64,000 nucleotides of DNA from a virus (IMGVR_UViG_3300045988_174813), one strand, 5' to 3'. Shown: positions 26,270 to 56,544, counted from the stretch's first letter. Numbers and translations are program-made. The notes: generated from the letters alone by a model not told the origin.

Positions 26270-26985
26270 AGATTTATTTAGCTGGACCGATTTTTACTTA
26301 TGGAGATTTACTTCGTAATACTGAATGGGCGCAGAAAATTCGAGAAGCCCTTCCAGGAGTGGATTTATATTCGCCTGTTGAGAATACCGATATAAATGGC
26401 ACAGAAGGCAAGAAGAAATTTGCTGGCTCGCGCGAAATAGCACAGGCAGATAATCTTCGTCTTGATGAAACGGATGTTCTTGTGGCATGTATTGACGGTG
26501 ATGTATTGCCTAGCGGGACATGTGCGGAGATTGGAAAATTTCACGAAAAAATTGCGCGTGGAGACCATAAGCATATTATTGGTATTTGCACTGATAATCG
26601 CCAATGCCATTTGACTAGTAGCCCCGCGAAAGATGCTGGTGGAGCAAGCGAGCTTGGGGAACAACAGTATTCTTATCAGAATCTCTATGTGACTGGGCTT
26701 ATCAAGCAGTATGGAGATTTAGTGTATACTATTGACGAAGTAATTATGCTTCTAAAAAAGTATGCTAAAGAATATGGGCAGAAAGTTACAAGTAAGCGGA
26801 AAACTGACAAAGAACTTATTGAAGAATTTGAAAATGATATGACTCGTTGTCATTTTGAACGTTTTGTCGGTAATTATTATCTATATCATGATGAAGGAAA
26901 TGATGATATTTCTCTAATTAGCATCACTCCTTCTGGTACAATTCAACACTTATTGAGAGAAGTAAATTTGGAGGAAATTGAATGA
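26266..26985 (+). CDS. nucleoside 2-deoxyribosyltransferase
   Basis: MKIYLAGPIF.. start and ..DGDVLPSGTCAEIG catalytic-Glu region. Confidence 0.7.
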   Translation: MKIYLAGPIFTYGDLLRNTEWAQKIREALPGVDLYSPVENTDINGTEGKKKFAGSREIAQADNLRLDETDVLVACIDGDVLPSGTCAEIGKFHEKIARGDHKHIIGICTDNRQCHLTSSPAKDAGGASELGEQQYSYQNLYVTGLIKQYGDLVYTIDEVIMLLKKYAKEYGQKVTSKRKTDKELIEEFENDMTRCHFERFVGNYYLYHDEGNDDISLISITPSGTIQHLLREVNLEEIE

Positions 26986-28208
26986 AGTATGGAATAAAGG
27001 ATAAGCCTCCATTTGGGCAATTGGTTCTTTTCTCACTCCAGATGATGCTTAGTTGCTTTACCGCGACAGCACTTATTGGACAGATTTGTAATGTTCCTTT
27101 GTCGGGCGCATTTGTAGGTTCTGGGCTTGCAACTATTGTATATCTTATTGCAACTAAGTTTGAAAGTAGTATGTACATTTCTAATTCAGGCGCCTTTGTA
27201 TCACCTGTATTGATTGCACTCCAACTTGGTGGCGCGACTGCGGTAGCCATTGGTGGTGCAATTGCTTGTATCGTTTATTGTATTTTTGGCTTTATTTTTA
27301 TGAAGATTGATGTAAGTCATATTTATAAAGTATTGCCTAAGGTGCTTATTGGCTCCATTACTGTAGTTATTGGTATTACTCTTATGAGTTTTATTCCATC
27401 ATACATTGGTGATACTGGTAATGTGGGTATGTTTATTGCACTTATCACGGTACTTACTATTGCTTTTGTTTCTCATTATTGCAAGGGCGCGCTCGCATTA
27501 TTTCCATTTTTGATTGGCACGCTTGTGGGATATGTAGTATCTATTCCTTTTGGCCTTGTAGATTTTAGTGTTTTTGAAGGAATCAGTTTATTTACTCTAC
27601 CTGACCTTGGTTTCTTTCATTGGACAAATATTGATGTAAGTACTTTACCTAATATTATTGTTCTTTTTGTGGCATTTACAGTGAGCGCAATTTGCGAATG
27701 CCTCAGCGATCATGCGGTTCTTGGTAATATTATTGGTGTTGATTTGTATCGTAAGCCTGGTCTTGGGCGCATTTTTATTGGCGAAGGATTAGCAAATCTC
27801 GTGGGCGCGTCAAGTGGGCAACTCGCCCAGTGTAGCTACGGAGAGAGCGTGTCAACTATTGGCTTTAGTAAATGTAGTTCAGTCTATTCTACTCTTGGAT
27901 GCGCGCTCTTTATGATTGCACTTGGTTTTATTGAACCTGTGCAAGCATTCGTAGCATCTATTCCATCCTGTGTTATTGGCGGTGGTACTGCAATGGTGCT
28001 TTATGGATTTATTGCTAATAGTGGTATTCGTACCTTACAGTCAGTAGACTTCAATAACCAGAAGAATCTAATTATTTCTTCTGTTGTTATGTCCCTTGGT
28101 ATCAGTGGCGTTATTGTAGGCAATGATACATTCCATTTGAGTGGAACGGCGCTTGCTCTTATTGCAGGTATTATTTTGAATTTTGTATTGAAGGAGAAAA
28201 ATAACTAA
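26982..28208 (+). CDS. uracil/xanthine permease (NCS2 family, UraA-like)
   Basis: Collinear with E. coli UraA: SLQ, SNSGAFVSPVL, YGESVSTIG, GGTAMVLYGFIANSGIRTL, NLIISSVVMSLGISG; multiple long hydrophobic segments. Confidence 0.8.
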   Translation: MKYGIKDKPPFGQLVLFSLQMMLSCFTATALIGQICNVPLSGAFVGSGLATIVYLIATKFESSMYISNSGAFVSPVLIALQLGGATAVAIGGAIACIVYCIFGFIFMKIDVSHIYKVLPKVLIGSITVVIGITLMSFIPSYIGDTGNVGMFIALITVLTIAFVSHYCKGALALFPFLIGTLVGYVVSIPFGLVDFSVFEGISLFTLPDLGFFHWTNIDVSTLPNIIVLFVAFTVSAICECLSDHAVLGNIIGVDLYRKPGLGRIFIGEGLANLVGASSGQLAQCSYGESVSTIGFSKCSSVYSTLGCALFMIALGFIEPVQAFVASIPSCVIGGGTAMVLYGFIANSGIRTLQSVDFNNQKNLIISSVVMSLGISGVIVGNDTFHLSGTALALIAGIILNFVLKEKNN

Positions 28209-30066: not shown

Positions 30067-30220
30067 ACCTCGCACTTTCAACGAAATGGCGCGAACAATA
30101 CGAGGCTCTTGGGGCGATATAAATCCAGTCACGCGAATAGAGCGGGATAAAACAAAATATACAAGAAAGACTAAACATAAGGGTAAAGATAACTCCTACC
30201 TTTATGGGCTAGTAGCCTAA
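30047..30220 (+). CDS. small basic protein
   Basis: AGGAGG RBS; MKKKKTKPRTF..; last 15 nt overlap tRNA-Lys. Confidence 0.35.
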   Translation: MKKKKTKPRTFNEMARTIRGSWGDINPVTRIERDKTKYTRKTKHKGKDNSYLYGLVA

Positions 30221-30281
30221 TGGTTCAGGCAACGCCCTTTTAAGACGTCTGATGCTGGTTCGATTCCAGTCTAGCCCACCA
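30206..30281 (+). tRNA. tRNA-Lys (UUU)
   Basis: Acceptor GGGCTAG/CTAGCCC, anticodon loop CTTTTAA, T arm GCTGG-TTCGATT-CCAGT, encoded CCA. Confidence 0.85.
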
Positions 30282-30318
30282 ACCCGAAAGGGTATTCTAC
30301 TAGTAGGAGTGAAAATTT

Positions 30319-30684
30319 ATGGAACAAGTTCTTTCTTGGATACAGCTTGCCATCTAGGTTTTGTCTTGTCTCGTTGTAATCATTCCTCTTGGCTATAAGC
30401 TATACCAGACAATTGTTGCTTATGGCAAAGAGAAGAATTGGCCTAAGCTCGTCGGTCTTGTCGCTGTATATATGGCAGAAGCCGAAAAGAAGCTCTCTGA
30501 GGGAGCCGATAAGAAAACTTGGGTTATGGCTATGATACAAACCACAGCCAAGGAAATGGATTATGAGCTTACTGATGCTAAGCTTGCAGAGATTTCTCAA
30601 CTTATTGATGACCTTTGCGCGATGGCAAAGAAAGTCAATGTTAATGTTCTTCCTATTGAGGGCGGAGAGCCTGTGGTTGAATGA
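30319..30684 (+). CDS. LL-H-type holin-like protein (1 sense TAG)
   Basis: ATG 30319, TAG 30355, joins ORF 30361-30684; N-terminal TM then amphipathic domain. Confidence 0.45.
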
Positions 30685-30687
30685 ACT

Positions 30688-30711
30688 TTGGGAGGGTTTA
30701 TGCCCTCCCAA
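30688..30711 (+). terminator. stem-loop after the holin-like gene
   Basis: TTGGGAGGG-6 nt-CCCTCCCAA; no clear U tract. Confidence 0.35.
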
Positions 30712-30782
30712 TCTATAAATTTATCAAGCCCGCGCCTTCTAAGTGGACTTGTAATTAGAACTTCTATGTAGAAAGGTGGTTT

Positions 30783-31520
30783 ATGATTTTGAGTGTCAAT
30801 TACTTTTTCTCTGGGGATACACATGGAGATTTTTCTCGTTTTCGAGACAATCCCATAGCTCAGGATAAGAATAATTATATCGTAATTGCTGGTGATTGTG
30901 GCGCTAATTTTTTTGGTGGAAAGCGTGATATGCGAGTCTGGCAAGAAGTCTCTCAATACCCTTGCCGTTTTTATACCTATTGCGGAAATCACGATATGCG
31001 CCCGCAAAACACGTATAATATGGAACGAGTATATGATGAGGCAGTAAAAGGCTGGGTGTGGTGGAATCCTTACTTTCCTAACCTTCGTTATTTCGAAGAC
31101 TATGGTATCTATATGCTCGGTAAGTATAAGTGCGCCATCATAGGCCACGCTTATTCTGTAGATAAATACTATCGTCTTATGCGCAACTGGACGTGGCATC
31201 CTGATGAGCAACTTACTACCCAGGAACGCTATGAGTGTCAGAAGCTTATGGAAGGTCAGCATTTTGATTTTGTAATGACTCATACTGCGCCATATAATTC
31301 GCGCCCAGTAGATAAATTTTTGGCTTGTGTAGACCAGTCTACTGTAGATGAGACTATGGAGCATTGGCTTGAAGCTCTGCGCGCGGATATAGATTATGAT
31401 GTTTGGCTTCTTGGACACTACCATATTGACCGTATTCAAGAGCCTAAGATGCGGATATTCTATAAAGATATCGACAGTTTAGATAATATCTATACTCAAA
31501 TAGCAAAGCCCAAAATTTGA
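30783..31520 (+). CDS. metallophosphoesterase (calcineurin-like)
   Basis: GDTHGD, IAGDCG, GNHD, GH, LGHYH motifs. Confidence 0.75.
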   Translation: MILSVNYFFSGDTHGDFSRFRDNPIAQDKNNYIVIAGDCGANFFGGKRDMRVWQEVSQYPCRFYTYCGNHDMRPQNTYNMERVYDEAVKGWVWWNPYFPNLRYFEDYGIYMLGKYKCAIIGHAYSVDKYYRLMRNWTWHPDEQLTTQERYECQKLMEGQHFDFVMTHTAPYNSRPVDKFLACVDQSTVDETMEHWLEALRADIDYDVWLLGHYHIDRIQEPKMRIFYKDIDSLDNIYTQIAKPKI

Positions 31521-31545
31521 AAATTCAGAAAAATAATGGTATAAT
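31517..31545 (+). promoter_or_regulatory. sigma-A type promoter
   Basis: TTGAAA-17-TATAAT. Confidence 0.65.
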
Positions 31546-31577
31546 ATATATAGAAAATGAAAGTGAGGGAAAACTAA

Positions 31578-31826
31578 ATGATTACAACTAACGATTGGAA
31601 TGTAGTTCTCAAAGAGCTTGGCTATAAGGAACCAGTATCTAAAGTAAAGCGTAAGCAGAAGCCTACTAAGTGTCGTCTATGTGGCGCCAATATGGTTCCC
31701 CATCCTGGCACCAATGTCTTTACTTGCTCTGGCACTATTGAGAAGGAAATCGAGAAGGATGGTAAGACTGTCAAGATTAGTGAGTCTTGTCCAGGCGTGT
31801 TTCTGCGCAATCGTATTATCAAGTAA
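31578..31826 (+). CDS. zinc-ribbon protein
   Basis: CRLCG..CSG..C; 82 aa. Confidence 0.55.
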   Translation: MITTNDWNVVLKELGYKEPVSKVKRKQKPTKCRLCGANMVPHPGTNVFTCSGTIEKEIEKDGKTVKISESCPGVFLRNRIIK

Positions 31827-31864
31827 ATAACCCCATAAAATCTAACCGAAAGGGAGGACTAGTT

Positions 31865-32089
31865 ATGGAAAGAATCATTGTAGTAGTTGGCTATTTCCCT
31901 AAGTCTAGAGTGTATATGGCTAAAATTGTGCGTGGAGACATATGGGCGCAAGCTTGGAAAGACCAGTGGACTGCTGATGGTGGAACTGTAGCAGTAGGAA
32001 AAATGTTTTATACCAGTGGTAAGCGCGAAGAAGCCTATAAGACTCTCAAGACTAAACTCATAAAAGAAATAAAGGAGAAGAATAACTAA
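31865..32089 (+). CDS. hypothetical protein
   Basis: GGAGG RBS before ATG 31865. Confidence 0.55.
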   Translation: MERIIVVVGYFPKSRVYMAKIVRGDIWAQAWKDQWTADGGTVAVGKMFYTSGKREEAYKTLKTKLIKEIKEKNN

Positions 32090-32325
32090 TGGAAGATGGT
32101 TGGATAGATGTAAACTATTCCTTCTCTACTGTAGGCTATGCGCGTGATACATTACTTGCGCGATTACGGCAGATGGTTGTGAATTATGAACGGTTGGAAC
32201 TTGTGGATAGAAGTCATTGGAGTGATTGGCGCGAGACAATTCTTTTGCGCGGGTCTATTCGTGATGGAGAATATGGCGAGTTTCAGAAGTTTATGGAAGA
32301 AATGATGCGTGAGTATGATGTGTGA
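32089..32325 (+). CDS. hypothetical protein
   Basis: 78-aa ORF, TAATG coupling. Confidence 0.55.
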   Translation: MEDGWIDVNYSFSTVGYARDTLLARLRQMVVNYERLELVDRSHWSDWRETILLRGSIRDGEYGEFQKFMEEMMREYDV

Positions 32326-32328
32326 AAT

Positions 32329-32357
32329 TTGAATTTTTGAAAAATTTAGTGTATAAT
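32329..32357 (+). promoter_or_regulatory. sigma-A type promoter (variant leader TGTAAGGTTGAGAGAG)
   Basis: TTGAAT-17-TATAAT. Confidence 0.65.
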
Positions 32358-32385
32358 ATATATGTAAGGTTGAGAGAGAAATAAT

Positions 32386-32646
32386 TTCTTGAAACTTTAT
32401 ACGCACATATCGGGGCGGAGTATGCGACGACACGTGCAACGAAGCAAATAAACTCGGCAGTGCCTGTATATGTTGCAACCGTTGGAGGACGAGATAAACC
32501 TCCGGTAATTTGTAGTTTTCCATTCCTCAAGAGAAAGCTTCCGGAAATACGAGAAGGGAATGTATGGCGCGCGCGAACCAGCATTCAAAATCCCCACGAA
32601 GAGGGCATTTGTGGATTGGGTGTTTTGCCACAAGATGCACTAAAAT
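32386..32646 (+). ncRNA. promoter-driven ORF-free structured transcript, unknown class
   Basis: No RBS-preceded ORF; helices GGAGG/CCTCC, CATTCC/GGAATG, CCAC/GTGG; ends at the next promoter. Confidence 0.4.
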
Positions 32647-32647
32647 T

Positions 32648-32676
32648 TTGACTTTCTGGAAATTTTAGTGTATAAT
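32648..32676 (+). promoter_or_regulatory. sigma-A type promoter driving tRNA-Leu
   Basis: TTGACT-17-TATAAT; near-identical copy at 34550. Confidence 0.7.
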
Positions 32677-32696
32677 AAATATAGAAAGTGAGATAT

Positions 32697-32781
32697 GGGG
32701 AATTGGTGTAATAGGTAGACACAAGGCACTTAAAATGCCTGGGCGAGAGCCATACCAGTTCGAGTCTGGTATTCCCTACCA
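32697..32781 (+). tRNA. tRNA-Leu (UAA)
   Basis: Anticodon arm AGGCA-CTTAAAA-TGCCT, long variable arm, T arm ACCAG-TTCGAGT-CTGGT, A73, CCA. Confidence 0.85.
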
Positions 32782-32867
32782 TACAAAAGGATAGGATGAT
32801 GTTGGCCTATCATCTGATAAGAGATGCCCCTCTTCCTTTTGTTTATTTTAGGGCAAGGGGTAAATTT

Positions 32868-33503
32868 ATGGCGTATATTTATAAGATTGTAAATAGAGTA
32901 AATGGAAAACTCTATATTGGTAAAACTTAGTTCTCTATTGAAAGGCGATTTTAGGAGCATATTAGAGCCTCTAAAAAAGAAAATTGTGCTAATCGTCCTC
33001 TATATAAAGCTATGAAAAAATACGGGATTGACAATTTTTATGTTGAACTTATTGAGGAAACTAATAATCCAGAAGAGCGTGAGCAGTTTTGGATAAGATA
33101 TTATAATAGTTATGTTGGTTTTTCTAACTGTCAAGGTTATAATGCTACTTTAGGTGGTGACGGGAAAGCTTATATTGATAGAGAACCGATAATTGAACTC
33201 TTTTAGTAGGGTCTTACATAGAGAGAAATTTCTTCTTTGCTGGGTTATGATGCTCATACTATAAGAGTAGCTTTGAATGAAGCTGGATTTTCCCATAAAG
33301 AAATTGAAAATAATGCTCTTTCTAAATAGAAAAAGGGCGTTCAGATGTTAGATAAAATAACTTCTGAATAGATAGCTCTTTTCTCTTCTATAATGGAAGC
33401 AGAAAGGTATCTCCAAAAACCGCAAAGTCGTCGGCATATAGCTGAGGTTTGTAATGGAAAACGAAAATCAGCTTATGGGTATAAATGGCAATGGAATAAC
33501 TAA
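32868..33503 (+). CDS. GIY-YIG homing endonuclease (7 sense TAG)
   Basis: YIYKIVNRVNGKLYIGKT..RF.EH..N..LY.A..KYG..NF..E..E....REQFWI..Y; C-terminal ..NGKRKSAYGYKW; ORF 33012 shares the frame. Confidence 0.75.
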
Positions 33504-33538
33504 AATAAATTTATGGATGTATAACATCCATAATATAT

Positions 33539-33610
33539 GGCGGGAAGCGATGGTCGCAGATTGGTCTCATACACCAATTATTGAGTGTTCGAATCACTCT
33601 CCCGCACCCA
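33539..33610 (+). tRNA. atypical tRNA, anticodon CAU (Met/Ile2-type)
   Basis: Anticodon arm TTGGT-CTCATAC-ACCAA, T arm GAGTG-TTCGAAT-CACTC, CCA; D loop only 3 nt, G1/A72 mismatch. Confidence 0.5.
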
Positions 33611-34436
33611 TAGACGTGCCCTAATGCGTCTCTAAATAATCAGGGTAGTGCGAGAGAGGATGGATTTACGGTAAACTACCACTGGCGTCACAGACCCAAT
33701 AGGAGGGCGACGATATGTGGCTTGTCATTTGGAATCGCACTATAATACAAAGAAAACGAAAGTAACCGTGTATTTCTTATTCTGCGCGCCCTGCATTCAA
33801 AGCGCTCAATGAAGCAGGAGCTTAGTAGACAAAAGAAAAGGGTTCGTTTAGCTTATAACCCTAAAAGCTAAACTTTGTATAGAGGCGAGAGGATGAACCT
33901 CTATGGGGTTTTTGGTAACGGTCTCCTAACGAACACGTAACGGGTCGGAAGTCCCAAAATCTTCCCGCAGGCACGGCGATAGTTATCCCGCTTATGTGAA
34001 GGGTTCGTAGCGTAAAATGTACCCTATCCAGCAAGAAGCTACGCTGGGAGTGAGCTTCCGCTGGCAGTCGTGAAAAGCTCGCGTCTTAGGCTGTGTCAAT
34101 GCCCTAAGCGTTAGGTCGATTACGAGAAATTGACTAGGTTTTAGTGCTTTTGTGAAATATAAAGCTCCTGCGCGGGCGAGTGCAGAATATTGTAAAGGGA
34201 GAAGTACAATCCCATCGTTCAGTTTGGTCGTTGCTGTATAAAACGACCACCAAATGGCGCGCTTCCAGTTTCTAAATGCGTAGGTTGTCTTTACCTCAGA
34301 AATTATAGGTTGCATAGAAAGTAATTAGAAGATGTAAAATAATAATAAGTCCTATAAGAGTAAGGAAAAAGATAATGGTTAGATATGCAGGGCGTAGAGT
34401 TGATGGTGTGCTCGCGCGGAGGATGAAACCATCCAT
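33611..34436 (+). ncRNA. ~825-nt ORF-free structured spacer between two tRNAs (large ncRNA candidate)
   Basis: Looks GC-richer than flanks by eye; >=8 local helices, e.g. CTTAGG/CCTAAG 34085-34108, GGTCGTT/AACGACC 34226-34248. Confidence 0.45.
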
Positions 34437-34511
34437 GGAGTATTCGTATAGTGGCTAATATTCCAGTCTTCCAAACTGGCGCGGTGGGTTCAATTCCCAC
34501 ATACTCCTCCA
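34437..34511 (+). tRNA. tRNA-Gly (UCC)
   Basis: Acceptor GGAGTAT/ATACTCC, loop CTTCCAA, T arm GTGGG-TTCAATT-CCCAC, CCA. Confidence 0.85.
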
Positions 34512-34549
34512 TGGTTCGGTAGTTTATCCTTCAAAAGCTACCTAGAATT

Positions 34550-34578
34550 TTGACTTTCTGGAAATTTTAGTGTATAAT
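34550..34578 (+). promoter_or_regulatory. sigma-A type promoter driving the suppressor tRNA
   Basis: TTGACT-17-TATAAT; leader ATAGAAAGTGG runs straight into the tRNA. Confidence 0.7.
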
Positions 34579-34597
34579 AAATATAGAAAGTGGATGA

Positions 34598-34673
34598 AGG
34601 CCTGTGGTGTAACGGTAAGCATAGGAGGCTCTAACCCTCTTGATACTCGTTCGAGTCGAAGTCGGGCCTGCCA
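34598..34673 (+). tRNA. suppressor tRNA, anticodon CUA (reads UAG), Gln-like
   Basis: Acceptor AGGCCTG/CGGGCCT, anticodon arm GGAGG-CTCTAAC-CCTCT (CTA at 34631-34633), G73, CCA; one bulge in the T stem. Confidence 0.8.
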
Positions 34674-34803
34674 TACTAAAGGCGCACACAGCAATTCCTA
34701 ATAGGGTAAAAATTTGTTCTGCACAAACGAATTAGTTGGTTCAAATCCAACAAAAAAAACTTGCGTCTTGAGTTTATTTCAAAAGAAAGAAAGGAAAACA
34801 TTT

Positions 34804-35010
34804 ATGTCTACAAATAAAGGTTATATGAAAGCCTATAACTTCATTGCAAAGCCTGGTTCTAAATCCTCCATCGCACGTCAGGCGGAACTTTCCGCGCGAC
34901 CCGTTATTGTTCATTCTTGTAGTGTGTGCGGCGCGCAGGGAACATTGTATCGTACAAATAAGGGCGAACATCCTGCGGTGTATGTTTGTAAGGAGCATCG
35001 GGCGAAGTAA
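34804..35010 (+). CDS. small Cys-containing protein
   Basis: GAAAGGAAA RBS, ATG 34804; CSVCG..C..H. Confidence 0.5.
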   Translation: MSTNKGYMKAYNFIAKPGSKSSIARQAELSARPVIVHSCSVCGAQGTLYRTNKGEHPAVYVCKEHRAK

Positions 35011-35026
35011 GTTTCGCCCTATATAT

Positions 35027-35101
35027 TGTGCTTTAGCTCAGTGGTAAGAGCCGGCGACTTATAATCGTCAGACGATAGTTCAACTCTATCAAGCACAACC
35101 A
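35027..35101 (+). tRNA. tRNA-Ile (UAU)
   Basis: Acceptor TGTGCTT/AAGCACA, D arm GCTC-AGTGGTAA-GAGC, loop CTTATAA, T arm GATAG-TTCAACT-CTATC, CCA. Confidence 0.8.
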
Positions 35102-35514
35102 TTTGGGAGGAAGGATGTAATCCGTAATCTACCTCCACTAATATGGCGTAAGTAGCTTGGACTTTGCTCCGCCTATAATAGAGCCTAACTCAAAGCATAG
35201 TGTTATAGAGCGTGAGAGCCAACGTCTATGTTGGCTCCCGCAATTGAACAGCTAATTATTCATTTTTCCCTACCTCCTTCTTTGTTCTCTTTTGGTCGTT
35301 GAGAGAATAAATAAAACGACTACCAATAGACTTTCACACCTCTGGCGGGCTGCAAGTGGCAAATGAAAGTCTTTCCGAAAGTAGGAAAATCCTTCTACTT
35401 GCGCGGAAACCATTTCGGAATTGACCACTGCGATGGTATCTTCGTTTTAGAGGTTACAGCCTAGTTAGCCATTATGGGAAGTCTGGTCAATGGAACATAA
35501 TGGTTAGCGTACTT
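35102..35514 (+). ncRNA. ~410-nt ORF-free structured spacer
   Basis: Helices GAGCCAAC/GTTGGCTC 35215-35236, GACTTTCA/TGAAAGTC 35329-35371, and 12 bp TTAGCCATTATG/CATAATGGTTAG 35464-35508. Confidence 0.4.
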
Positions 35515-35591
35515 GGTGCCATCGACTAATTGGCTAGGTCACGACCCTTTCACGGTCGTAATGTTGGGTTCAAGTCCCACTGGCATCTCCA
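35515..35591 (+). tRNA. tRNA-Glu (UUC)
   Basis: Acceptor GGTGCCA/TGGCATC, anticodon arm CGACC-CTTTCAC-GGTCG, T loop TTCAAGT, CCA. Confidence 0.75.
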
Positions 35592-35624
35592 TATATTACC
35601 GATATATTAGAAAGGAAGAGACAA

Positions 35625-36398
35625 ATGGACATCACTAATTTTGATACCTATAATGCGCGAATGTCATCCTCTATTGAGGATAAAATGTGGTTTTGGGATA
35701 AAGTCAAACATACTACAGATTCTATTGTAGATTATGGATGCGCCGATGCGTCTCTTCTTTTGCGTATCAATGAAGAGCATCCTTATCAGACTCTTATTGG
35801 CTATGATGCTTCTGATGATATGCTAGCCCGCGCGAAAGAAAAAACTAAAAATACACCTATTTGCTTTGTAGAAAGTATATTTGAGCCGGAAATGAAAGAG
35901 ACTTGTCTTGTTCTTTCTTCTGTAATTCATGAAATCTATTCTTATCAGTTGAAAGAAGATGCAGATTTTGAACTGGGCATGATTTTTGACCTTGGCGCAA
36001 AATATATTGCAATTCGTGATATGGGTATACGAGATATATGCCGTAATATAGAAACACCAATCGATGTTCTCAAAAACATTTATGCACGCGATGATGTTGC
36101 TAAGATTGCTTCTTTTGAAAAACGTCAAGGCCGTATTTCTAATTGGGCAAATTGTATTCACTATCTTTTGAAGGCGCCATATGACGAGAATTGGGCGCGA
36201 GAAGTGGAAGAAAATTATGTACCGTTTACTATGAATGAAGTGCTCGCGCAATATAATGTGGATAGTCCTGTCAAATATGATGTGGTGTTTTTTGAAGCAT
36301 ATACCTTACCCTATGTGCGCGAACGCATTATTCGAGATTATAATATTAGCTTGTATACGCCCACTCACTATAAACTGCTTCTTGAACGTCATTTCTAA
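35625..36398 (+). CDS. class I SAM-dependent methyltransferase
   Basis: IVDYGCADAS (motif I), LIGYDASD, LVLSSVIHE; embedded in the tRNA island. Confidence 0.6.
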   Translation: MDITNFDTYNARMSSSIEDKMWFWDKVKHTTDSIVDYGCADASLLLRINEEHPYQTLIGYDASDDMLARAKEKTKNTPICFVESIFEPEMKETCLVLSSVIHEIYSYQLKEDADFELGMIFDLGAKYIAIRDMGIRDICRNIETPIDVLKNIYARDDVAKIASFEKRQGRISNWANCIHYLLKAPYDENWAREVEENYVPFTMNEVLAQYNVDSPVKYDVVFFEAYTLPYVRERIIRDYNISLYTPTHYKLLLERHF

Positions 36399-36405
36399 TC
36401 TATAT

Positions 36406-36489
36406 GCCACCGTGATGGAAAGTATACATACAAGCCTTAGAAGCTTGCGCCCGCGAGGGATTGCGAGGTCGAACTCGCCGGTGGCACCA
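36406..36489 (+). tRNA. tRNA-Leu (UAG)
   Basis: Acceptor GCCACCG/CGGTGGC, anticodon arm CAAGC-CTTAGAA-GCTTG, long variable arm, A73, CCA; T loop looks 6 nt. Confidence 0.7.
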
Positions 36490-36496
36490 GTAAAAT

Positions 36497-36525
36497 TTGA
36501 ATTTTCTGAAAATTTAGTGTATAAT
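36497..36525 (+). promoter_or_regulatory. sigma-A type promoter
   Basis: TTGAAT-17-TATAAT. Confidence 0.65.
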
Positions 36526-36559
36526 ATATACATAAGATGAAGAAAGGAAAGAAAATCTA

Positions 36560-36775
36560 ATGGCTTATTTTGATTGTATGGGAACTTGTGGGGTTAGTCC
36601 TTTCAAGTGTAAGAATCACTATTGTAGTGGTAATCCTCATTACACCCCGCCGAAGCGGAAAGTGAAACCCAAGCAGGGTTCTGGCAATCATCCTGTTCGT
36701 TCTATTCGTGCGAAAATTCGTAAGGATGATGGACGCGGATATAATTTCTTTAGAGATATGGCGCGAGACGAATAA
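36560..36775 (+). CDS. small basic Cys-rich protein
   Basis: GAAAGGAAAG RBS; 71 aa, K/R-rich. Confidence 0.5.
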   Translation: MAYFDCMGTCGVSPFKCKNHYCSGNPHYTPPKRKVKPKQGSGNHPVRSIRAKIRKDDGRGYNFFRDMARDE

Positions 36776-36778
36776 GTT

Positions 36779-36855
36779 TAGCGTATAGTGGAAGGCTCTT
36801 ACAGCGATAGATTTATAATTCTATTGTATTATTGGTTCGACTCCAATTGCGCAAT
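36779..36855 (+). tRNA. tRNA-like gene with 7-bp anticodon stem and 8-nt loop (TTTATAAT)
   Basis: Acceptor TAGCGTA/TGCGCAA (1 mismatch), T arm ATTGG-TTCGACT-CCAAT; non-canonical anticodon arm. Confidence 0.35.
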
Positions 36856-37239
36856 TGCGTATAGCTTAGTTGGTAAAGCAAATAAAAATTATTAGAGCCT
36901 TGGATAGTTTACCTTAGATAAGTTTGGATTTTAGTTAGTTTTGAGTAAAGACCCTTACAGCAAACATTCTAATATTTTTGGACTTATAATCCCGTGGTCG
37001 GTGGTTCGAGTCCACCTCAGACAGCCTGCGTGGTATGTCAGGTAGCTCAGTTGGCTAGAGCACGAAAATTATTTTGTGGGTCTTGTTTTATGTTTTGTTG
37101 GATTGGTACTCCTTAGTAAATAAAGGCGCGGGACTGCAATCTTTGAAAAAAGAATGTGATATAATAGATACTGTCGAGCGACCTCGGTAGGCTTGACCCC
37201 AAGTTCGGCTGGATTATCCAGCTCGCGCCTTGTATTTAT
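36855..37239 (+). other. cluster of unpaired tRNA half-molecules plus a structured element
   Basis: 5' half 36855-36880, 3' half ~36978-37024 (loop CTTATAA, T arm GGTGG-TTCGAGT-CCACC), 5' half 37036-37062; helix AAGGCGCG/CGCGCCTT 37124-37230. Confidence 0.4.
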
Positions 37240-37315
37240 GGATGGTTATCTCAACTGGAAGAGAGCTCGCCTTACACGCGAGAGGTTAGAAGTTCAAGTC
37301 TTCTACTATCCACCA
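37240..37315 (+). tRNA. tRNA-Val (UAC)
   Basis: Acceptor GGATGGT/ACTATCC, anticodon arm CTCGC-CTTACAC-GCGAG, T arm AGAAG-TTCAAGT-CTTCT, CCA. Confidence 0.85.
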
Positions 37316-37602
37316 TAGATTACCACTTGTTAGATTGTTATCCTCCTGAGACGTCAGCTAGTTCTGGCAATCAATAAGTGAATAATCTACGTCCAATATC
37401 TCACTCACGACGTAAAACTCTTGTGAGGTCGCAAAGGAGAGATGCGTGAGCGGGTCTCACTCCAGACTGCGTTAGGTCGAAAAGACGTCTAGCTCAACCT
37501 TTTTCTTTGTCTGTTCTTTTAGTGGAAGTATCGAAAAATGAACGGCAGAAACGTTTCGAGGTTCGAGTGGTTTCCTTGGGAGGACCGAAAACCACTCACT
37601 AT
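37316..37602 (+). ncRNA. ~290-nt ORF-free structured spacer
   Basis: Helices GTGAG/CTCAC ~37446-37460 and GTGGTTT/AAACCAC ~37567-37594; GACGTC-AGCT boxes at 37351 and 37484. Confidence 0.35.
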
Positions 37603-37679
37603 GCTTCCATACCCCAATAGGTAGAGGGGAATGGCTCAAACCCATTGTAGTCTCAGTTCGAATCTGAGTGGAAGTACCA
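37603..37679 (+). tRNA. tRNA with anticodon CAA but a short (class I) variable arm
   Basis: Acceptor GCTTCCA/TGGAAGT, anticodon arm AATGG-CTCAAAC-CCATT, 5-nt variable region, T arm CTCAG-TTCGAAT-CTGAG, A73, CCA. Confidence 0.65.
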
Positions 37680-37765
37680 TTGGCAGTTTACCACCTGCCG
37701 TCGATTTTTTTCTTTAGCATATGATAAGTTATGACGTTCTTATCTGAAATAAAAACGTCATCTAT

Positions 37766-37840
37766 GGGAGATTAGCCTAGTGGTTCAGGCAGTCGGCTGT
37801 TAACCGACCTACAGGTGTTCAATTCACTTATTTCCCGCCA
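37766..37840 (+). tRNA. tRNA-Asn (GUU)
   Basis: Acceptor GGGAGAT/ATTTCCC, anticodon arm GTCGG-CTGTTAA-CCGAC, T loop TTCAATT, G73, CCA. Confidence 0.85.
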
Positions 37841-37935
37841 GAACGGTTGTTGGGCCAACCGTTTCGTTTCCTCTTTTTCTTTGTAGGGTTTGGCAGTTTC
37901 CTTGGGGTCTCACTTCTAAAAACTGCCTTTTATAT

Positions 37936-38009
37936 TGAGGATGTGGTGTAATGGTAGCATTCCTGTTTTGGGTACAGGCGGAGCCGTTCAAATCGGACAT
38001 CTTCAACCA
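37936..38009 (+). tRNA. tRNA-Pro (UGG)
   Basis: Anticodon arm CCTGT-TTTGGGT-ACAGG, acceptor TGAGGAT/ATCTTCA, CCA; weak T stem. Confidence 0.65.
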
Positions 38010-38035
38010 TATCAAAAAAATTTAGGAGGTATATT

Positions 38036-38308
38036 ATGCCTAAGGTACTCTTTGAATGTAATGATTGTGGCAAGTTCTATGGCAGTGAAGCGGAAGCTCT
38101 TGCTTGTGAAAAAGCTCATGCTAGTGAACGCACGCGTAAGGAAAAGCTTCAGGCTGAAAAGAAAGCTCGTTTGGAAGCTATCCGTGCACAGTATGAAAAG
38201 CTTCTTGAAGATATTCGCAAGTTCAATGAGGACTATGCGGAACCTGCAACAATGAGTTATACTGGTGCACTTAGTAAGGTGTTGGATAGTTTTTTCAAGT
38301 TGTTCTAA
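38036..38308 (+). CDS. zinc-ribbon / coiled-coil protein
   Basis: AGGAGG RBS; CNDCG..C start, K/E-rich helix. Confidence 0.55.
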   Translation: MPKVLFECNDCGKFYGSEAEALACEKAHASERTRKEKLQAEKKARLEAIRAQYEKLLEDIRKFNEDYAEPATMSYTGALSKVLDSFFKLF

Positions 38309-38403
38309 GTGAATCATTGAATAAGATATAAAGACGCATAACAGCAATACATTATATAAATATTTTTTGAAAATATATTATGGAAATGCGTCTTGGTTTA
38401 TAT

Positions 38404-38478
38404 AGGAGCGTCGCCAAGTGATTAAGGCACGGGACTTTGACTCCCGCATCGTGCGTTTGAATCGCACCGCTTCTGCCA
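38404..38478 (+). tRNA. tRNA-Gln (UUG)
   Basis: Acceptor AGGAGCG/CGCTTCT, D arm GCCA-AGTGATTA-AGGC, anticodon arm CGGGA-CTTTGAC-TCCCG, G73, CCA. Confidence 0.85.
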
Positions 38479-38558
38479 GATAGATTGAATAAATCGTCTA
38501 ATTCAAGTAGGTTATAAGATAGTCTGCTAATTTCCGTTCAGCAGGAGCGCAGAAAGAT

Positions 38559-38586
38559 AGATATAAGACCTAATATATCTTTTGTT
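38559..38586 (+). terminator. stem-loop plus T run
   Basis: AGATATA-8 nt-TATATCT, then TTTTG. Confidence 0.45.
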
Positions 38587-38601
38587 CAATCAACCTAAAA
38601 T

Positions 38602-38630
38602 TTGAATAATTTCAAAATATATTGTATAAT
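38602..38630 (+). promoter_or_regulatory. sigma-A type promoter
   Basis: TTGAAT-17-TATAAT. Confidence 0.65.
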
Positions 38631-38665
38631 ATATACATAAAGTAAAGAAGAAAGGAAACACTAAA

Positions 38666-39037
38666 ATGAAAACCTATCCTATTGAGAAGTACAAGTTCAT
38701 TATCCTTCCTGAGCAGAAGAAAGTCATTGCGCTTACTTCGTATGCTGGTAAAACTGTAAAGGGTGTTGCCGTGTGCAGTGAACATGATGAATTTGATATT
38801 GAAACGGGCAAACGGCTTGCTGCCGCGCGAGCCAATGTAAAGGTAGCAATGAAGCGTAAGGCGCGTGCCGAGAAGAAGCTGGCATACTTTGATAAAATTA
38901 TTGAAGATGTCGAGCGTGAGTATCATGAGCTTGAAGGTTATGCTTATGATGCTGGCGAACGATGGGAAAACGCGATTGATGAACTGGCTGGTGTGCTGAA
39001 TGATGTTGGCGCGCTTGAGCCGATGGATATTGAGTAA
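38666..39037 (+). CDS. hypothetical protein
   Basis: GAAAGGAAA RBS; 123 aa. Confidence 0.55.
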   Translation: MKTYPIEKYKFIILPEQKKVIALTSYAGKTVKGVAVCSEHDEFDIETGKRLAAARANVKVAMKRKARAEKKLAYFDKIIEDVEREYHELEGYAYDAGERWENAIDELAGVLNDVGALEPMDIE

Positions 39038-39048
39038 GGAGTAAATTT

Positions 39049-39645
39049 ATGGGTCGGTGCGAAAGTAAGTATTGTGAAAAATGTGGGTGTTATGTGCCTG
39101 AGGGAGAGACAGCGTGTGTTTCTTGTGGGTATGATCCTACTCCAAAGCCTGTGCGCCGACCTGATCCTCTTGCAGATATGTATGCGCGAGACCCTTGGGC
39201 GATAGCGCAGTATCATACTCCTTTACCCATGGATTACGCACAACTGGTGAATGTGGCACCGAAGGTAAGACAGATGACTCTGAATGAAGTGCTTGATGAG
39301 TTGAAAATGGAAGATAAGTATGAGCGGTCCGCGCGAGCAATGAGTCAGATTTTTTGTTCAACTGCTCAAGCCTCTGAAGCTTTTACTCAACTTGCACGAG
39401 ACCATCAAGATGCGCAGAAACAGGTAATATTGCATGAATTTCTTTGGGCAAAAGGCGGAAAGGGCAATTCTTCAATAGTCACAACTCCAAATTGTATCAA
39501 AAATGAGATGGATAGAAATTGTTTGGAACTTTGTGAATATTGTTCTTTGGAACAAGAGAGAAAAGATATATATACTCACAGGATTATTAGAACATACAAA
39601 TGTTTGAAACATCCTCATGTGTCTTATATAAGTGTAATCAACTAA
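39049..39645 (+). CDS. zinc-ribbon protein
   Basis: CEKCG..CVSCG N-terminus; 198 aa. Confidence 0.55.
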   Translation: MGRCESKYCEKCGCYVPEGETACVSCGYDPTPKPVRRPDPLADMYARDPWAIAQYHTPLPMDYAQLVNVAPKVRQMTLNEVLDELKMEDKYERSARAMSQIFCSTAQASEAFTQLARDHQDAQKQVILHEFLWAKGGKGNSSIVTTPNCIKNEMDRNCLELCEYCSLEQERKDIYTHRIIRTYKCLKHPHVSYISVIN

Positions 39646-39647
39646 AT

Positions 39648-39741
39648 GGGCGTCTAATCCTAATTGGCTAAGGAAATAGTCTTGAAAACTATTAGTAGCA
39701 TCGTAAGGTGTGTCTCGGTTCAAGTCCGAGGGCGCTCGCCA
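39648..39741 (+). tRNA. tRNA-Ser (UGA)
   Basis: Anticodon arm ATAGT-CTTGAAA-ACTAT, long variable arm, T arm CTCGG-TTCAAGT-CCGAG, G73, CCA. Confidence 0.8.
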
Positions 39742-39743
39742 TG

Positions 39744-39856
39744 AATAGAATAGTAGGGTTAGCCTGTTCCGTGGTGATACGCGGGTCGCACCTTTGAGAA
39801 CGCCTTGTATACGGGTAAAACAGAGCACAAGCCGGCAATGTTCTCTCTATTCTATT
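39744..39856 (+). ncRNA. ~115-nt structured spacer closed by a 10-bp helix
   Basis: AATAGAATAG (39744) pairs with CTATTCTATT (39847). Confidence 0.35.
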
Positions 39857-39862
39857 TTATAT

Positions 39863-39950
39863 GCGGAGTAAATCCAGAAGGTCTGGAGCCTACCTGCTAA
39901 GTAGTGCGTAGTCGTAAGGCTATATGAATCGTTTTCATTGCTCCGCGCCA
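39863..39950 (+). tRNA. atypical tRNA-Ser (GCU)-like
   Basis: Acceptor GCGGAGT/GCTCCGC, loop CTGCTAA, long variable region, CCA; T loop lacks TTC and the D arm is aberrant. Confidence 0.45.
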
Positions 39951-39953
39951 TAT

Positions 39954-39996
39954 GCCAGAGATTGGTGTTGAGTGGGTTCGAATCCCACCGCTGGCA
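39954..39996 (+). other. acceptor/T-arm minihelix (tRNA lacking D and anticodon arms)
   Basis: GCCAGAG-11 nt-GTGGG-TTCGAAT-CCCAC-CGCTGGC-A; no CCA. Confidence 0.4.
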
Positions 39997-40073
39997 TCGA
40001 GGGCTTTTGCAATAAGCCCAAGAGATTGCAATCATGTATATTGGGAGGAGTTGAGACCCTACCCAATATATAT

Positions 40074-40148
40074 GCCTTCGTAGTATAATGGCTATTACTT
40101 CGGATTTGTAACCCGAAGATAGGTGTTCAATTCACCTCGAAGGCTCCA
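40074..40148 (+). tRNA. tRNA-Thr (UGU)
   Basis: Acceptor GCCTTCG/CGAAGGC, loop TTTGTAA, T arm AGGTG-TTCAATT-CACCT, CCA. Confidence 0.8.
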
Positions 40149-40648
40149 TTACCGCACGGATGGCCATGGTTCCAATATGACGGTATTACTTCTATATTGA
40201 AGGTTTGGTGCGGTATATAAATGAATATGGGTCTAAATTCAAATGGTAGAGCCTTCATTTGAATAACAAAGTGTGATAAATGTGAACAGATAGAGCGCTA
40301 AGCGCACGGGTCTTCTAGGGGCCTTCTCTATCATCTATGCTCTAATAGTTTAGTAGGAAAAATACCGGCATCGTTGCCGGAGAGAGCGGTTCGAATCCGT
40401 GAAGGGGCCGTGGTTCTTCCACCACGAAGAGAAGCGGGTGGTTTCCACCGTTAGGAAACTAAGATACCGAGTGACACGTGGTATCTATGGGAGGATACGT
40501 TGACTTCCACTGTTGGTCTCCTCAACAGTAATGTAGATGGAGTGACATCCGGAAAAGAGCGGAATAGCGCATTCGACGTTGTGATGTGCGCCATAGGTAT
40601 ATGGCCGGAAAAAAGATACCCATCCCGTCTGCGAGGACGGGAGCCTAT
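40149..40648 (+). ncRNA. ~500-nt ORF-free structured spacer (large ncRNA candidate)
   Basis: Helices TACCGCAC/GTGCGGTA 40151-40215, GATACC/GGTATC 40463-40485, CTGTTG/CAACAG, CCCGTC/GACGGG 40623-40640; holds a tRNA 5'-half-like copy at 40339. Confidence 0.4.
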
Positions 40649-40729
40649 CCTCTAATAGCAAAGTGGTAATGCATACCATCCCAAGTTTACGTAAGAAGGT
40701 AACCATTGGTTCGAGTCCAATTTAGAGGA
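40649..40729 (+). tRNA. tRNA-like gene with an enlarged anticodon region
   Basis: Perfect acceptor CCTCTAA/TTAGAGG, D arm GCA-AAGTGGTAA-TGC, T arm ATTGG-TTCGAGT-CCAAT; TACC..GGTA encloses 20 nt; no CCA. Confidence 0.4.
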
Positions 40730-40730
40730 C

Positions 40731-40756
40731 GCCCGCATAGCGGGCTATTTTATTTT
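40731..40756 (+). terminator. rho-independent terminator ending the tRNA island
   Basis: GCCCGC-atag-GCGGGC, then TATTTTATTTT. Confidence 0.7.
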
Positions 40757-40771
40757 ATGGAGAGATGAATT

Positions 40772-41608
40772 ATGGATTATTTGGGTTATAAGACGATAAG
40801 ACTTAATGATGAAGCATTGAGCCAACTCTATACCAATGGAAATTTAGGTGCGGACGCGCCCGAATTTTTGGTGAATGAGTATCTTATAGCAACAGATAAA
40901 GATGATAATCCAGTGGACTATTTTAGGTATACCACTGATGGGATTTTCGTTCGTGTTCCATTTCTCACTATGTCATCTAATCGTGGAGAAAAGTTGAAAC
41001 CACGCAATCAAGAACAAAGAATTGCTTTTGATTTGATGAAAAATAAAGATGTCCCAGTCAAACTGCTTACAGGAACATGGGGCGCGGGTAAGACAATTGC
41101 CTTGATTGGACAAGCTATGGAAGATCTAGAAGCTGGTGTGTTTGAAAAAATTACTTGGGTACGTAATAATGTACAGGTAAAAGACACTGATGCTCTTGGC
41201 GCGTTGCCTGGCTCTTCCGAGAGTAAAATGTTGCCATATGTAATGCCTTTTGCTGACCACTGTGGTGGGACAGAGGCCGTTGAACAGATGATTGAAATGG
41301 GTCTTTTGGAAGTAATTCCTCTTGGCTTTTTGCGCGGGCGCAGTATTCGCAATTCAGTTATTCTATGTTCAGAGGCAGAAAACCTTACTAAGCAACATAT
41401 CCAACTGCTTCTTGGTCGTCTGGATACTGGAAGTCAGTTATGGTTTGATGCAGATGTACGCCAGCGAGATAGAGAAGCTTTTGTAAAATCTGCGGGTATT
41501 GAGACTATGGTTGAACGATTGAAAGGAAACCCCCTATTTGGATATGTCCATCTACAAAAATCTGAACGGTCGCCTGCTAGTAGGCTGGCTGACCTTTTGA
41601 ATGACTAA
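40772..41608 (+). CDS. phoH: PhoH-like ATPase
   Basis: GTWGAGKT Walker A, ..LGALPGS..K..P..RGRS..N..I..EA.N......LGR...GS......D..Q.D. Confidence 0.85.
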   Translation: MDYLGYKTIRLNDEALSQLYTNGNLGADAPEFLVNEYLIATDKDDNPVDYFRYTTDGIFVRVPFLTMSSNRGEKLKPRNQEQRIAFDLMKNKDVPVKLLTGTWGAGKTIALIGQAMEDLEAGVFEKITWVRNNVQVKDTDALGALPGSSESKMLPYVMPFADHCGGTEAVEQMIEMGLLEVIPLGFLRGRSIRNSVILCSEAENLTKQHIQLLLGRLDTGSQLWFDADVRQRDREAFVKSAGIETMVERLKGNPLFGYVHLQKSERSPASRLADLLND

Positions 41609-41704: not shown

Positions 41705-43405
41705 ATGGCTGGCAAGCTATGGCATGCCTTTGGATAGCAAGGTACTTTTGTATACTATAAGCGCCTTGCAACTGATGCTTTAGTAAATCCTTCTCTTGGA
41801 GGACTATATAAGCATTCATTGGGGCAACTTGAAATGTCTTCTATACTTGGAAAAGTGAAGAATAAAGATATATCGCGGTCTCTTCGTGCGCAAGCATCTG
41901 TGGAGTTAAACAAAGAGCTTACTGCTTTGCAAAATGCCTGGGGCATAAGTTTTCCTGCTTCTGTCGTGAATGGGTAGTATTTTTATGATGGGCTGATTAG
42001 GGCTATTAATACACAAATACAAACTAATGCGGTGTATTAGCGTAATAAAGACCGTTTAGAGTATACCAATAAGCAAGGTAAACGAAATGCTCTTGCAAAA
42101 ATAGATGCGACGCAGTTCTTTGGAACATATTTTGAAAAACAATGGAAAGCAAATTATAAACAGATATAGGCTGAGTTAACAAGTAATATGACTGGTGATA
42201 ATCTTGTCCAACTTGTTGAGAGTACTCTAAATAACTGGCTTCCAACTTTATTAAATAATGCTCTTATAGATATGATGTCTAGTCAAGCGTTTGATGTGCG
42301 CTGGAATACACCAGAAGCTATAGCGGGTAATTAGCGCTGGGAACAGGATACTGCTTATAGAGATATGGTTGCCCAACTCCAAAAATACGGCGCAGATATG
42401 TAGAATAATCAGATATTACAATAGGTATGGAAAACGTATAATTTTGATGGGTTACTCGATGCACTTACTAAATCTATTACTGCTTCCGCGAAAGCAGAGA
42501 CTTCTACTAAGGATTTAAGTAAAGTTCTTTCTAAACAAGTTTCTAAAGTAGTGGGGCGCGCATCTACGGCAGGTAATTTAGCTGAAATCATTTGGAGTTA
42601 GCTGGTTGCAAGTGTAAATAGTGGTCCTGACTTTAGTGTAATGCATACTGGCGCGCGCAATCAATAGAAAGCCGACTTTATGATTTTCTTTCGCGCGAAT
42701 GCCCAAGACTTTCTAAGTAAGCAAAGTGAGATTATTGCTGAGCAAAAAGCTGACGATGAAGAAAGTATACGTATACAAAACATTATTGCAACTAACGGGG
42801 CATCATAGTTTTTAGCGAGTAATTCGATAGGTTATAATTTTATTGCTTACGTGAACGCAAAGAATTACACTCTCAATGATAGTTTTAGCGGATTTAGCGC
42901 AGGTTCCGCAATGGGCATGGGAGATATTGAACGTATGTTAAATATGATTCCTGGTGTAAGTTAGAATGGTGTATGGAGTCTAATTTCTTCTCTTATTCAA
43001 TTCGGAGATGGTGCGATTGGTGCGGGGACCGGCATGGAACAGGATCTTATGAATCAAATGAGTGAAGTCATTGCTAATTTTTTATTTGATGACTATGCAA
43101 CTTTGTGCTCTGATATAAGTGGTTCTACAAGTAGCAGTATTCATTTATTTGCTCTTGATGGGATATATATACCACTTTCTTTTTTTTTGAATATAAGTGC
43201 AGATGCTATTGATATAGGATGGGAAGAAGCGCAAGATTATTTTAATTTTGAACTTCATACTGTGCCTATACTTTATGGGGATTTGGCTCTTGATGAATAT
43301 ACGCCCGAAATGTGGGAGACACAAAGAGCTGATGCGCTTGCAAGAACTAAGATAAGTATGAGTTTTTTAAAGTCTTTTCAGACGCTTATTGGTTCTTTAA
43401 TATAA
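41705..43405 (+). CDS. 566-aa protein of unknown function (11 sense TAG)
   Basis: GGTGGTGAG RBS, ATG 41705; single frame to TAA 43403-43405; contains ORF 43034-43405; all 11 internal stops are TAG. Confidence 0.7.
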
Positions 43406-56225: not shown

Positions 56226-56544
56226 ACGAACACGGTTGCCTGATTGGGCACTTATATGTATACTACTGTGCGCATTTGCTATGGCAGTTTTCTTTATTGA
56301 ACTGCTCACTGGGGATACCCAAAAGAAAATAAATATTGGTGGTATTGGGTTTGCCTGCACTTTGATTCTAATCTTTATATTCCTAGTGGTAGGGCAGACA
56401 GTTGCTCCAAAGAGAATAATGCAATATGAATGTACCATTGATAGTAATGTAAGTTTTGTGGAACTCTACGAAAAGTATGATGTAATTGAGCAACGTGGAG
56501 ATATCTGGGTATTGGAGGAGAAAGCAAATGGAGAAGTCGATTGA
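56194..56544 (+). CDS. membrane protein (3 TM)
   Basis: AAGGAGAA RBS, ATG 56194. Confidence 0.5.
   Translation: MDGVIVLNVIERTRLPDWALICILLCAFAMAVFFIELLTGDTQKKINIGGIGFACTLILIFIFLVVGQTVAPKRIMQYECTIDSNVSFVELYEKYDVIEQRGDIWVLEEKANGEVD

Follow-up and report, generated by a model that had tools for sequence, protein, structure and literature searches.

What is made from the roughly 500-nucleotide (nt) spacer near the end of a phage transfer RNA (tRNA) island, a region that had been singled out for its many potential helices? The spacer occupies positions 40149-40648 of a 64,000-nt stretch of viral DNA (IMGVR_UViG_3300045988_174813), referred to here at its full length as the window. Its source is an uncultivated phage of the human gut, for which a near-identical 83.9-kb contig exists (IMGVR_UViG_3300045988_164752 / ENA UERG01000079). 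The original prediction took the spacer for a large structured RNA whose size and setting match the phage RNA ROOL and whose tRNA-like pieces recall GOLLD. Comparison of related phages makes it probable that the spacer RNA represents an uncatalogued family of structured noncoding RNA in the tRNA operons of TAG-recoded human-gut phages. This family would be new and of the same broad kind as ROOL and GOLLD, but a member of neither. The reading is carried by the conservation of the element, the strand on which it folds, its local helices and three pseudoknots, its modular build, and its absence from Rfam.

Homologues and conservation

Relatives were gathered outward from the PhoH gene (40772-41608), which lies downstream of the island, and viral and metagenome collections were then scanned with invariant blocks of the spacer. 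Twenty-four distinct versions of the element were found, all in uncultivated human-gut phages. Some of these are near-identical strains; the clearly diverged versions are L018 and a set comprising L009, L027, L029, L032 and L028. A third group (L020, L021, L022, L024, L031 and L033-L035) is found on 82-142-kb contigs whose shared proteins are 35-55% identical to those of the window. At the DNA level the element is matched between the window and this group, as are a few tRNAs and a single stretch of 113 bp (window 56416-56528, 71-73% identical, in L022 and L034), and nothing else. Every homologue extends from directly after tRNA-Thr(UGU) to the next tRNA, and the homologues sit, flanked by tRNAs, inside 12-30-gene tRNA islands of viral contigs; the tRNA-adjacent phage location known for ROOL and GOLLD is thus seen in each of them. 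In the window the preceding tRNA-Thr(UGU) gene lies at 40074-40148 (+ strand) and encodes its CCA.

The 3' domain of the element is 78-88% identical between lineages, with 57% of its columns (89/157) invariant, whereas tRNA-Thr is 62-72% identical between the same lineages. Because tRNA-Thr is the less conserved of the two, joint movement of the pair as one cassette was rejected. Phages whose PhoH is 72-73% identical do not carry the element, and in L002-L004 only 5 nt separate tRNA-Thr from the odd tRNA-like gene that otherwise forms the 3' border. No second copy of the element was detected in the window with nhmmer and three covariance models.

Structure and covariation

The claim of a large structured RNA on the tRNA strand is borne out by folding. 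The + strand of the spacer folds at -165.1 kcal/mol against a mean of -145.5 for dinucleotide shuffles (z -3.49; 0/100 shuffles as good), and the - strand gives a z of -1.49 in the same kind of comparison.

The element is built of successive modules on the + strand. The 5' module (40149-40266) contains P1 (40152-40157/40208-40213), P1a (40174-40176/40185-40187) and P1b (40189-40192/40199-40202), which form the single clear three-way junction of the element, followed by a conserved AU-rich joiner and by P2 (40237-40246/40255-40264) with its conserved loop UAGARCYU. The P3 module (40267-40335), a pseudoknotted leader, consists of P3' (GATAGAG/CTCTATC, 40289-40295/40326-40332), an inner hairpin (40309-40313/40319-40323) and a crossing helix, PK-C (GTGTG/CGCAC, 40271-40275/40303-40307). 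After a CCA-less tRNA-like unit (40339-40407) comes the most conserved part, the 3' domain (40408-40564). It begins with P5 (40409-40414/40421-40426), behind which stands an invariant GAAGAGAAGCG, and continues with pseudoknot PK-A (stems S1, 40435-40437/40448-40450, and S2, 40441-40446/40454-40459), an invariant CUAAG, P7 (40463-40468/40480-40485), P8 (40489-40493/40504-40508) and P9 (40509-40515/40523-40529). The loop of P9 (40518-40521) pairs with 40539-40542 to form PK-B, and an invariant GACAUCCGGAAAAGAGCGGAA follows. The remainder (40565-40648) is a variable tail of hairpins (GCGCAT../..GTGCGC, GCCATA/TATGGC, an A-run and a terminal CCCGTC/GACGGG hairpin at 40624-40641); in other lineages it is replaced by ~100-290 nt of unrelated hairpins.

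All six helices that had been listed from the sequence are present, five where they had been placed and the tail helix CCCGTC/GACGGG (40624-40629/40636-40641) one base away, and five of the six are kept in relatives. The other five are TACCGCAC/GTGCGGTA (40150-40157/40208-40215), TTCAAATG/CATTTGAA (40238-40245/40256-40263), CGTGG(T)/(A)CCACG (40409-40414/40421-40426), GATACC/GGTATC (40463-40468/40480-40485) and CTGTTG/CAACAG (40510-40515/40523-40528). Among these, compensatory change is found in P1, P2 and P7, and once, in one relative, in P9; changes in P5 are one-sided only.

The call for a covariation check was answered with a 21-sequence alignment (A4), in which 77 pairs were proposed in 15 helices. 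Standard pairs occupy 97.4% of the cells, and 21 of the 77 pairs change on both sides, compared with 2-5 in controls in which the partners were slid by 1-3 columns; none of 500 shuffles reached the observed values. The covarying pairs include five stacked in P2, one in P1 and two in P1a. Once the local register had been corrected, compensatory change was also seen in P1, P1a, P7 (three sequence versions) and P8. Both stems of PK-A persist in two versions that are unrelated in sequence (CGG/CCG with GUUUCC/GGAAAC, and CGUU/AACG with GGUCA/UGAC). In L005 the P3 module has GUAGG/CCUGC instead of GUGUG/CACAC as its crossing helix, and since this change is compensatory the module is counted as a third pseudoknot. 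Several helices also contain invariant G-U pairs; together with the compensatory changes, these indicate selection on one RNA strand. Long-range helices proposed by RNAalifold (the 5' end with GACAUCCGG..GCGG) either clash with the covarying P1 and PK-B or are invariant, and are unproven.

Rfam 15 (4,227 families) was run on the window at the gathering threshold and, at E<=10 with permissive filters, on 38400-40900, the rest of the island, L022 4250-5000 and L009 2140-2970. Neither ROOL (RF03087), GOLLD (RF01998) nor any other non-tRNA family matched the element in three diverged members at E<=10; tRNA matches alone turned up in or beside it. ARAGORN reports no transfer-messenger RNA, Rfam lists none above its tRNA matches, and there is no conserved frame for a tag.

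The embedded tRNA-like unit and the bounding gene

The tRNA-like pieces noticed earlier in the spacer, GCTCTAATAG from 40339 and AGCGGTTCGAATCCGTG from 40385, are real and belong to one unit. In the window this unit is degenerate. The Rfam tRNA model matches it partially (40346-40400, model positions 8-63, 22.8 bits, E 0.12); what is left of the acceptor stem is 4 bp (40340-40343/40403-40406), the D arm is weak, the anticodon arm is replaced by a 6-bp hairpin, CCGGCA/TGCCGG, whose loop has 4 nt, and the T arm reads AGCGG-TTCGAAT-CCGT. Thus it scores below the 29 bits of a tRNA (RF00005), and has neither a 7-nt loop with U33 nor a CCA. The unit varies among relatives: that of L009 is a full cloverleaf (36.5 bits, above the Rfam tRNA threshold), while that of L022 is not matched by the Rfam tRNA model at all. 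ARAGORN calls it Cys(ACA), Arg(ACG), Pro(AGG) or Phe(GAA), depending on the relative, and position 33 is G in the unit loops that were read (L009, L021 and L022). L012 and L013 have lost it through a clean 79-nt deletion of window 40324-40402, located between GGGGCC direct repeats at 40319-40324 and 40403-40408; the gap looks like a repeat-mediated loss or an insertion footprint.

Because the unit is CCA-less, has an odd loop and position 33, and varies in its "anticodon", it resembles a tRNA mimic more than a decoding tRNA, and would at most pass for a non-standard one. On the simplest view it would serve as a signal for ribonuclease (RNase) P and RNase Z. Fremin et al. 2023 (PMC10690425) report candidate RNAs of phages that coincide in part with ARAGORN calls of tRNA-Cys and tRNA-Arg, and these may correspond to the embedded unit.

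The gene that bounds the element on its 3' side (40649-40730, +; 82 nt) is also CCA-less and tRNA-like. Its acceptor, D and T arms are normal. The anticodon loop, AUCCCAA, is of the Gly(CCC) type and carries a 13-nt insertion at about position 37/38, which produces a 20-nt loop on a 4-bp stem; position 37/38 is the classic site of tRNA introns. This gene is 90% identical between lineages (e.g. L002 5878-5959), and its stem shows two compensatory changes (UACC/GGUA to AGCC/GGCU).

Transcription and processing of the element

The tRNA island spans 10.5 kb (30206-40730) and contains 14 canonical tRNA genes, all on the + strand and all encoding CCA. A strong promoter is present six times within it, as a block of ~51 nt (TTGAC/A..17..TGTATAAT) at 31509, 32321, 32640, 34542, 36489 and 38594 on the + strand; these blocks split the island into short transcription units. 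Closest upstream of the element is one of these six, a sigma-70-type promoter (TTGAAT-17-TATAAT, 38602-38630, +). An intrinsic terminator (GCCCGC-ATA-GCGGGC and then a T-run, 40731-40760, +) closes the transcription unit before PhoH. Since one promoter and one terminator bracket the element in this way, the spacer should be co-transcribed with the tRNAs.

Most likely, then, transcription would begin at the 38602 promoter and run through tRNAs and element alike as far as the terminator (40731-40760), and the cell's tRNA-maturation enzymes would probably excise the element. Its 5' end would arise from 3' processing of tRNA-Thr, and its 3' end from an RNase P cut at the odd tRNA-like gene at 40649. 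This logic follows from the encoded CCA of the canonical tRNAs, which both the embedded unit and the odd bounding gene lack. In relatives with an intact cloverleaf, RNase P and RNase Z may also cut the RNA in two, leaving P1-P2 with the P3 pseudoknot leader on the 5' side and the conserved pseudoknotted domain on the 3' side. In the window phage the ~500-nt RNA probably stays whole, because the acceptor stem of the embedded unit has decayed. The one to three structured RNAs that result would act in trans. That the element is as conserved as the phage tRNAs, or more so, suggests a conserved binding partner; the ribosome, tRNA-handling enzymes and the phage's PHROG-850 RNA-binding protein are candidates.

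Stable non-tRNA RNAs and functional spacers are found in other tRNA operons, and tRNA-like processing signals in other RNAs, among them the phage T4 species 1 and 2 RNAs (rnaC, rnaD), the E. coli 3'ETS-leuZ sponge and the mascRNA of MALAT1. The element would resemble them in lying between tRNAs, in acquiring its ends by tRNA processing, and in using a tRNA-like fold as a cleavage signal. These RNAs are, however, much smaller or unstructured, and none is known to have the sequence or the pseudoknots of the element.

The source phage and its island

In the source phage TAG is read as sense. A gene downstream of PhoH (41705-43405, +) contains 11 in-frame TAG codons and ends in a TAA stop, and the island includes an amber suppressor tRNA(CUA) at 34598-34673; the TAG-sense reading is drawn from these two features. 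Several TAG codons also lie inside other long frames of the window, and with TAG read as sense, standard-code lists of open reading frames (ORFs) would miss genes in it.

Other features of the island lie outside the element. The spacer 5' of tRNA-Thr contains a hairpin closed by GCGGAG/CTCCGC (39863-39946, +), the interior of which is hypervariable between the window and a 98%-similar contig, L001. At 39954-39996 (+) there is a CCA-less "minihelix" made up of an acceptor stem and T arm only (GCCAGAG..GTGGGTTCGAATCCCAC.CGCTGGC-A). Gene-sized indels inside the island separate close relatives: L001 (1996-3839) has ~1.8 kb extra after tRNA-Gln relative to window 38404-38592, and L014 (1280-1708) and L017 have an additional 142-aa ORF before the tRNA-Thr region. 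Just upstream of the island is a gene of the xanthine/uracil permease family (26982-28208, +; Pfam PF00860, E 3e-44).

One RNA or several?

Several observations weigh against the structured-family reading. Its distribution is narrow, with about five sequence clades. Among 50,697 GenBank phage records there was no match to the element, only short matches to tRNAs, and two scans of the genomes of 185,579 species yielded no true copy. In those genomes a search with one invariant block gave zero matches; a looser two-block pattern gave 38 genome matches and a few extra viral ones, all of them chance by nhmmer, and L026, from the metagenome scan, was likewise a chance match rather than a homologue. 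In a naive test of covarying columns, 592 chance-like pairs passed, and the signal was swamped by clade structure. Single-column covariation is confounded because so few clades were sampled, and an unbiased scan of stacked runs was therefore made. Among its 280 candidates P2 (10 bp, 5 covarying), PK-B (4 bp, 3 covarying) and P3' (7 bp, 2 covarying) lead; the covarying pairs of PK-B all come from one diverged sequence, L018. P10 and a long-range pairing of 40158-40162 with 40546-40550 never vary and P5 shows no compensatory change, which leaves these three unproven. Finally, the well-supported helices are all local and modules come and go, so that the element may be two or three separate small RNAs, not one large fold.

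The main rival extends this last point. It is appreciably less probable than the structured-family reading, and takes the locus for a series of small units independent of one another (5' leaders of tRNAs, a tRNA mimic, separate small RNAs) with tRNA-processing sites between them, each with a role of its own or merely aiding processing, as with the functional tRNA spacer fragments of bacteria. The behavior of the P3 module fits it well. A covariance model finds this module alone in two other phages (L098 1269-1344 and L005 3922-3997), where it ends at the first base of tRNA-Thr and of tRNA-Leu(UAG), respectively, and where both copies carry compensatory changes in P3'; the P3 module is a candidate conserved tRNA 5'-leader motif. 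The P3 module is missing from L009, L027, L029 and L032, just as the tRNA-like unit is from L012 and L013. Modules are mosaic between lineages, and no long-range helix shows covariation. However, no homologue has the 5' module without the 3' domain or the reverse, and neither their order nor their slot ever changes. The 5' module is found only inside the element (covariance model R3), and across 1.26 Mb of related phage loci the models for both parts matched the element alone. The two are also probably joined covalently in the window phage and in L012/L013, and the invariant, complementary segments GGAUG (40158-40162) and CAUCC (40546-40550) could clamp the two ends. This alternative differs from the reading as one structured-RNA family in degree only.

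A partner of a Ro60-like protein, or a ROOL/GOLLD relative?

Could the element instead be the RNA partner of a Ro60-like protein of the phage, related to the tRNA-mimicking Y RNAs but large? A DUF2828+DUF7788/vWA protein encoded in the window (20927-22519, +) matches PHROG 850, "RNA-binding protein" (E 1e-119), and in the L020-type phages its gene is part of the tRNA island, with ~2.5 kb between it and the element. Two sub-threshold matches to YrlA (RF02553; gathering score 69) fall in the island, at 36801-36914 (39.7 bits) and 36979-37087 (33.2 bits) on the + strand; the first is overlapped by an ARAGORN call of a "tRNA with 4-base anticodon" (36779-36855). The matches and the protein may together constitute a Ro/Y-RNA-like system of the phage. 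With Y RNAs the element would share a CCA-less tRNA mimic. RNAs that are probably YrlA-like and a candidate protein of the Ro type are encoded in the same phage, and the two ends of the element may pair. Nevertheless, the YrlA model does not match the element itself (38400-40900, E<=10). Y RNAs are ~100-120 nt and have a permuted tRNA-like domain, whereas the unit of the element has the normal order and is dispensable. Furthermore, 56 of the 60 phage loci that encode the protein have no element within 10 kb, and the likeness to Ro60 is putative, as the protein has no sequence match in PDB; a literature search on DUF2828 was uninformative. Such a partnership is therefore considered unlikely.

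Slightly less likely still is the membership originally proposed, in which the element would be a diverged or miniaturised ROOL or GOLLD. ROOL and GOLLD are phage or prophage RNAs, often near tRNA islands, that form RNA-only cages (PMC5737381, PMC12286853). ROOL is ~581 nt with six multistem junctions (PMC5737381, PMC12286853), occurs in phages near tRNAs and is possibly co-transcribed with them (PMC5737381); GOLLD exceeds 800 nt, its 3' region is conserved and its 5' region less so, and the linker between the two sometimes holds tRNAs (PMC12286853). The setting of the element is one common for these families (PMC5737381, PMC12286853), and its layout resembles that of GOLLD: a variable 5' part, a tRNA-like unit in the linker, and a 3' domain conserved throughout. 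With ROOL it shares its size class, roughly, as well as pseudoknots. The likeness to GOLLD concerns context and layout, the P3 module and tRNA-like unit being optional and the size roughly half, and is an analogy, as no homology of sequence or structure was detected. Membership in either family is not supported: no covariance model for RF03087, RF01998 or any other large RNA matched three diverged members, at the gathering threshold or at E<=10. In addition, the core of the element is ~420 nt (500-730 nt with the tail) and consists mainly of serial hairpins and H-type pseudoknots around one clear three-way junction. Unlike GOLLD it is confined to a narrow group of human-gut phages, and compared with ROOL it has far more invariant nucleotides, which reflects this narrow distribution.

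Debris, DNA site or protein?

Very little favors neutral debris, that is, decayed tRNA genes and accidental hairpins, or a DNA site such as an origin or packaging signal. The embedded unit does resemble a decaying paralogue of the neighboring odd tRNA, and indels are common. The element is, however, more conserved than the adjacent tRNA and the flanking coding DNA, its compensatory changes and G-U pairs suggest that one RNA strand is under selection, and no iterons or other repeats were found; these readings were already disfavored.

The description of the spacer as ORF-free holds with a qualification. No reading frame is conserved among the homologues under either the standard or the TAG-sense code, and stops of all three kinds occur in every frame of the spacer. 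With TAG as sense, though, a + frame is open from 40302 to 40653, and a 51-codon ORF starts with TTG at 40500 behind a Shine-Dalgarno-like GGGAGGA. That either frame encodes a small protein is the least credible reading of all, even though both are open in the window and TAG is a sense codon in the source phage, since the TTG frame ranges from 10 to 97 codons across 21 homologues, is broken directly after its start in 8 of them and runs into tRNAs, relatives differ by 1-, 5- and 79-nt indels, and the substitutions in L018 are compensatory for RNA pairing and radical as amino acids.

Implications

A bolder version of the structured-family reading, which is put forward tentatively and as somewhat less probable than the string of independent units, would set the element beside GOLLD and ROOL as a third class of large ornate RNA from the tRNA islands of phages, independent of both. 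The 5' domain would fold or assemble with the 3' domain, possibly as a multimer or as a ribonucleoprotein with the Ro-like protein, and its tRNA-shaped linker would be presented or released, so that the RNA would act on the host translation or tRNA machinery in TAG-switching phages.

Large, highly structured RNAs of phages and bacteria with no assigned function are rare, and those that have been studied have proved unusual. A further family, not related to GOLLD or ROOL but located as they are and laid out like GOLLD, suggests a recurring answer to a phage need tied to tRNA expression. At ~420 nt, the core of the element is a smaller and more tractable example than GOLLD or ROOL, and the separable, pseudoknotted P3 leader, which lies immediately 5' of tRNAs in three lineages of phages, is a candidate new motif in tRNA processing. 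Because the family occurs in TAG-recoding phages with large sets of tRNAs, it also links to the question of how such phages take over translation.
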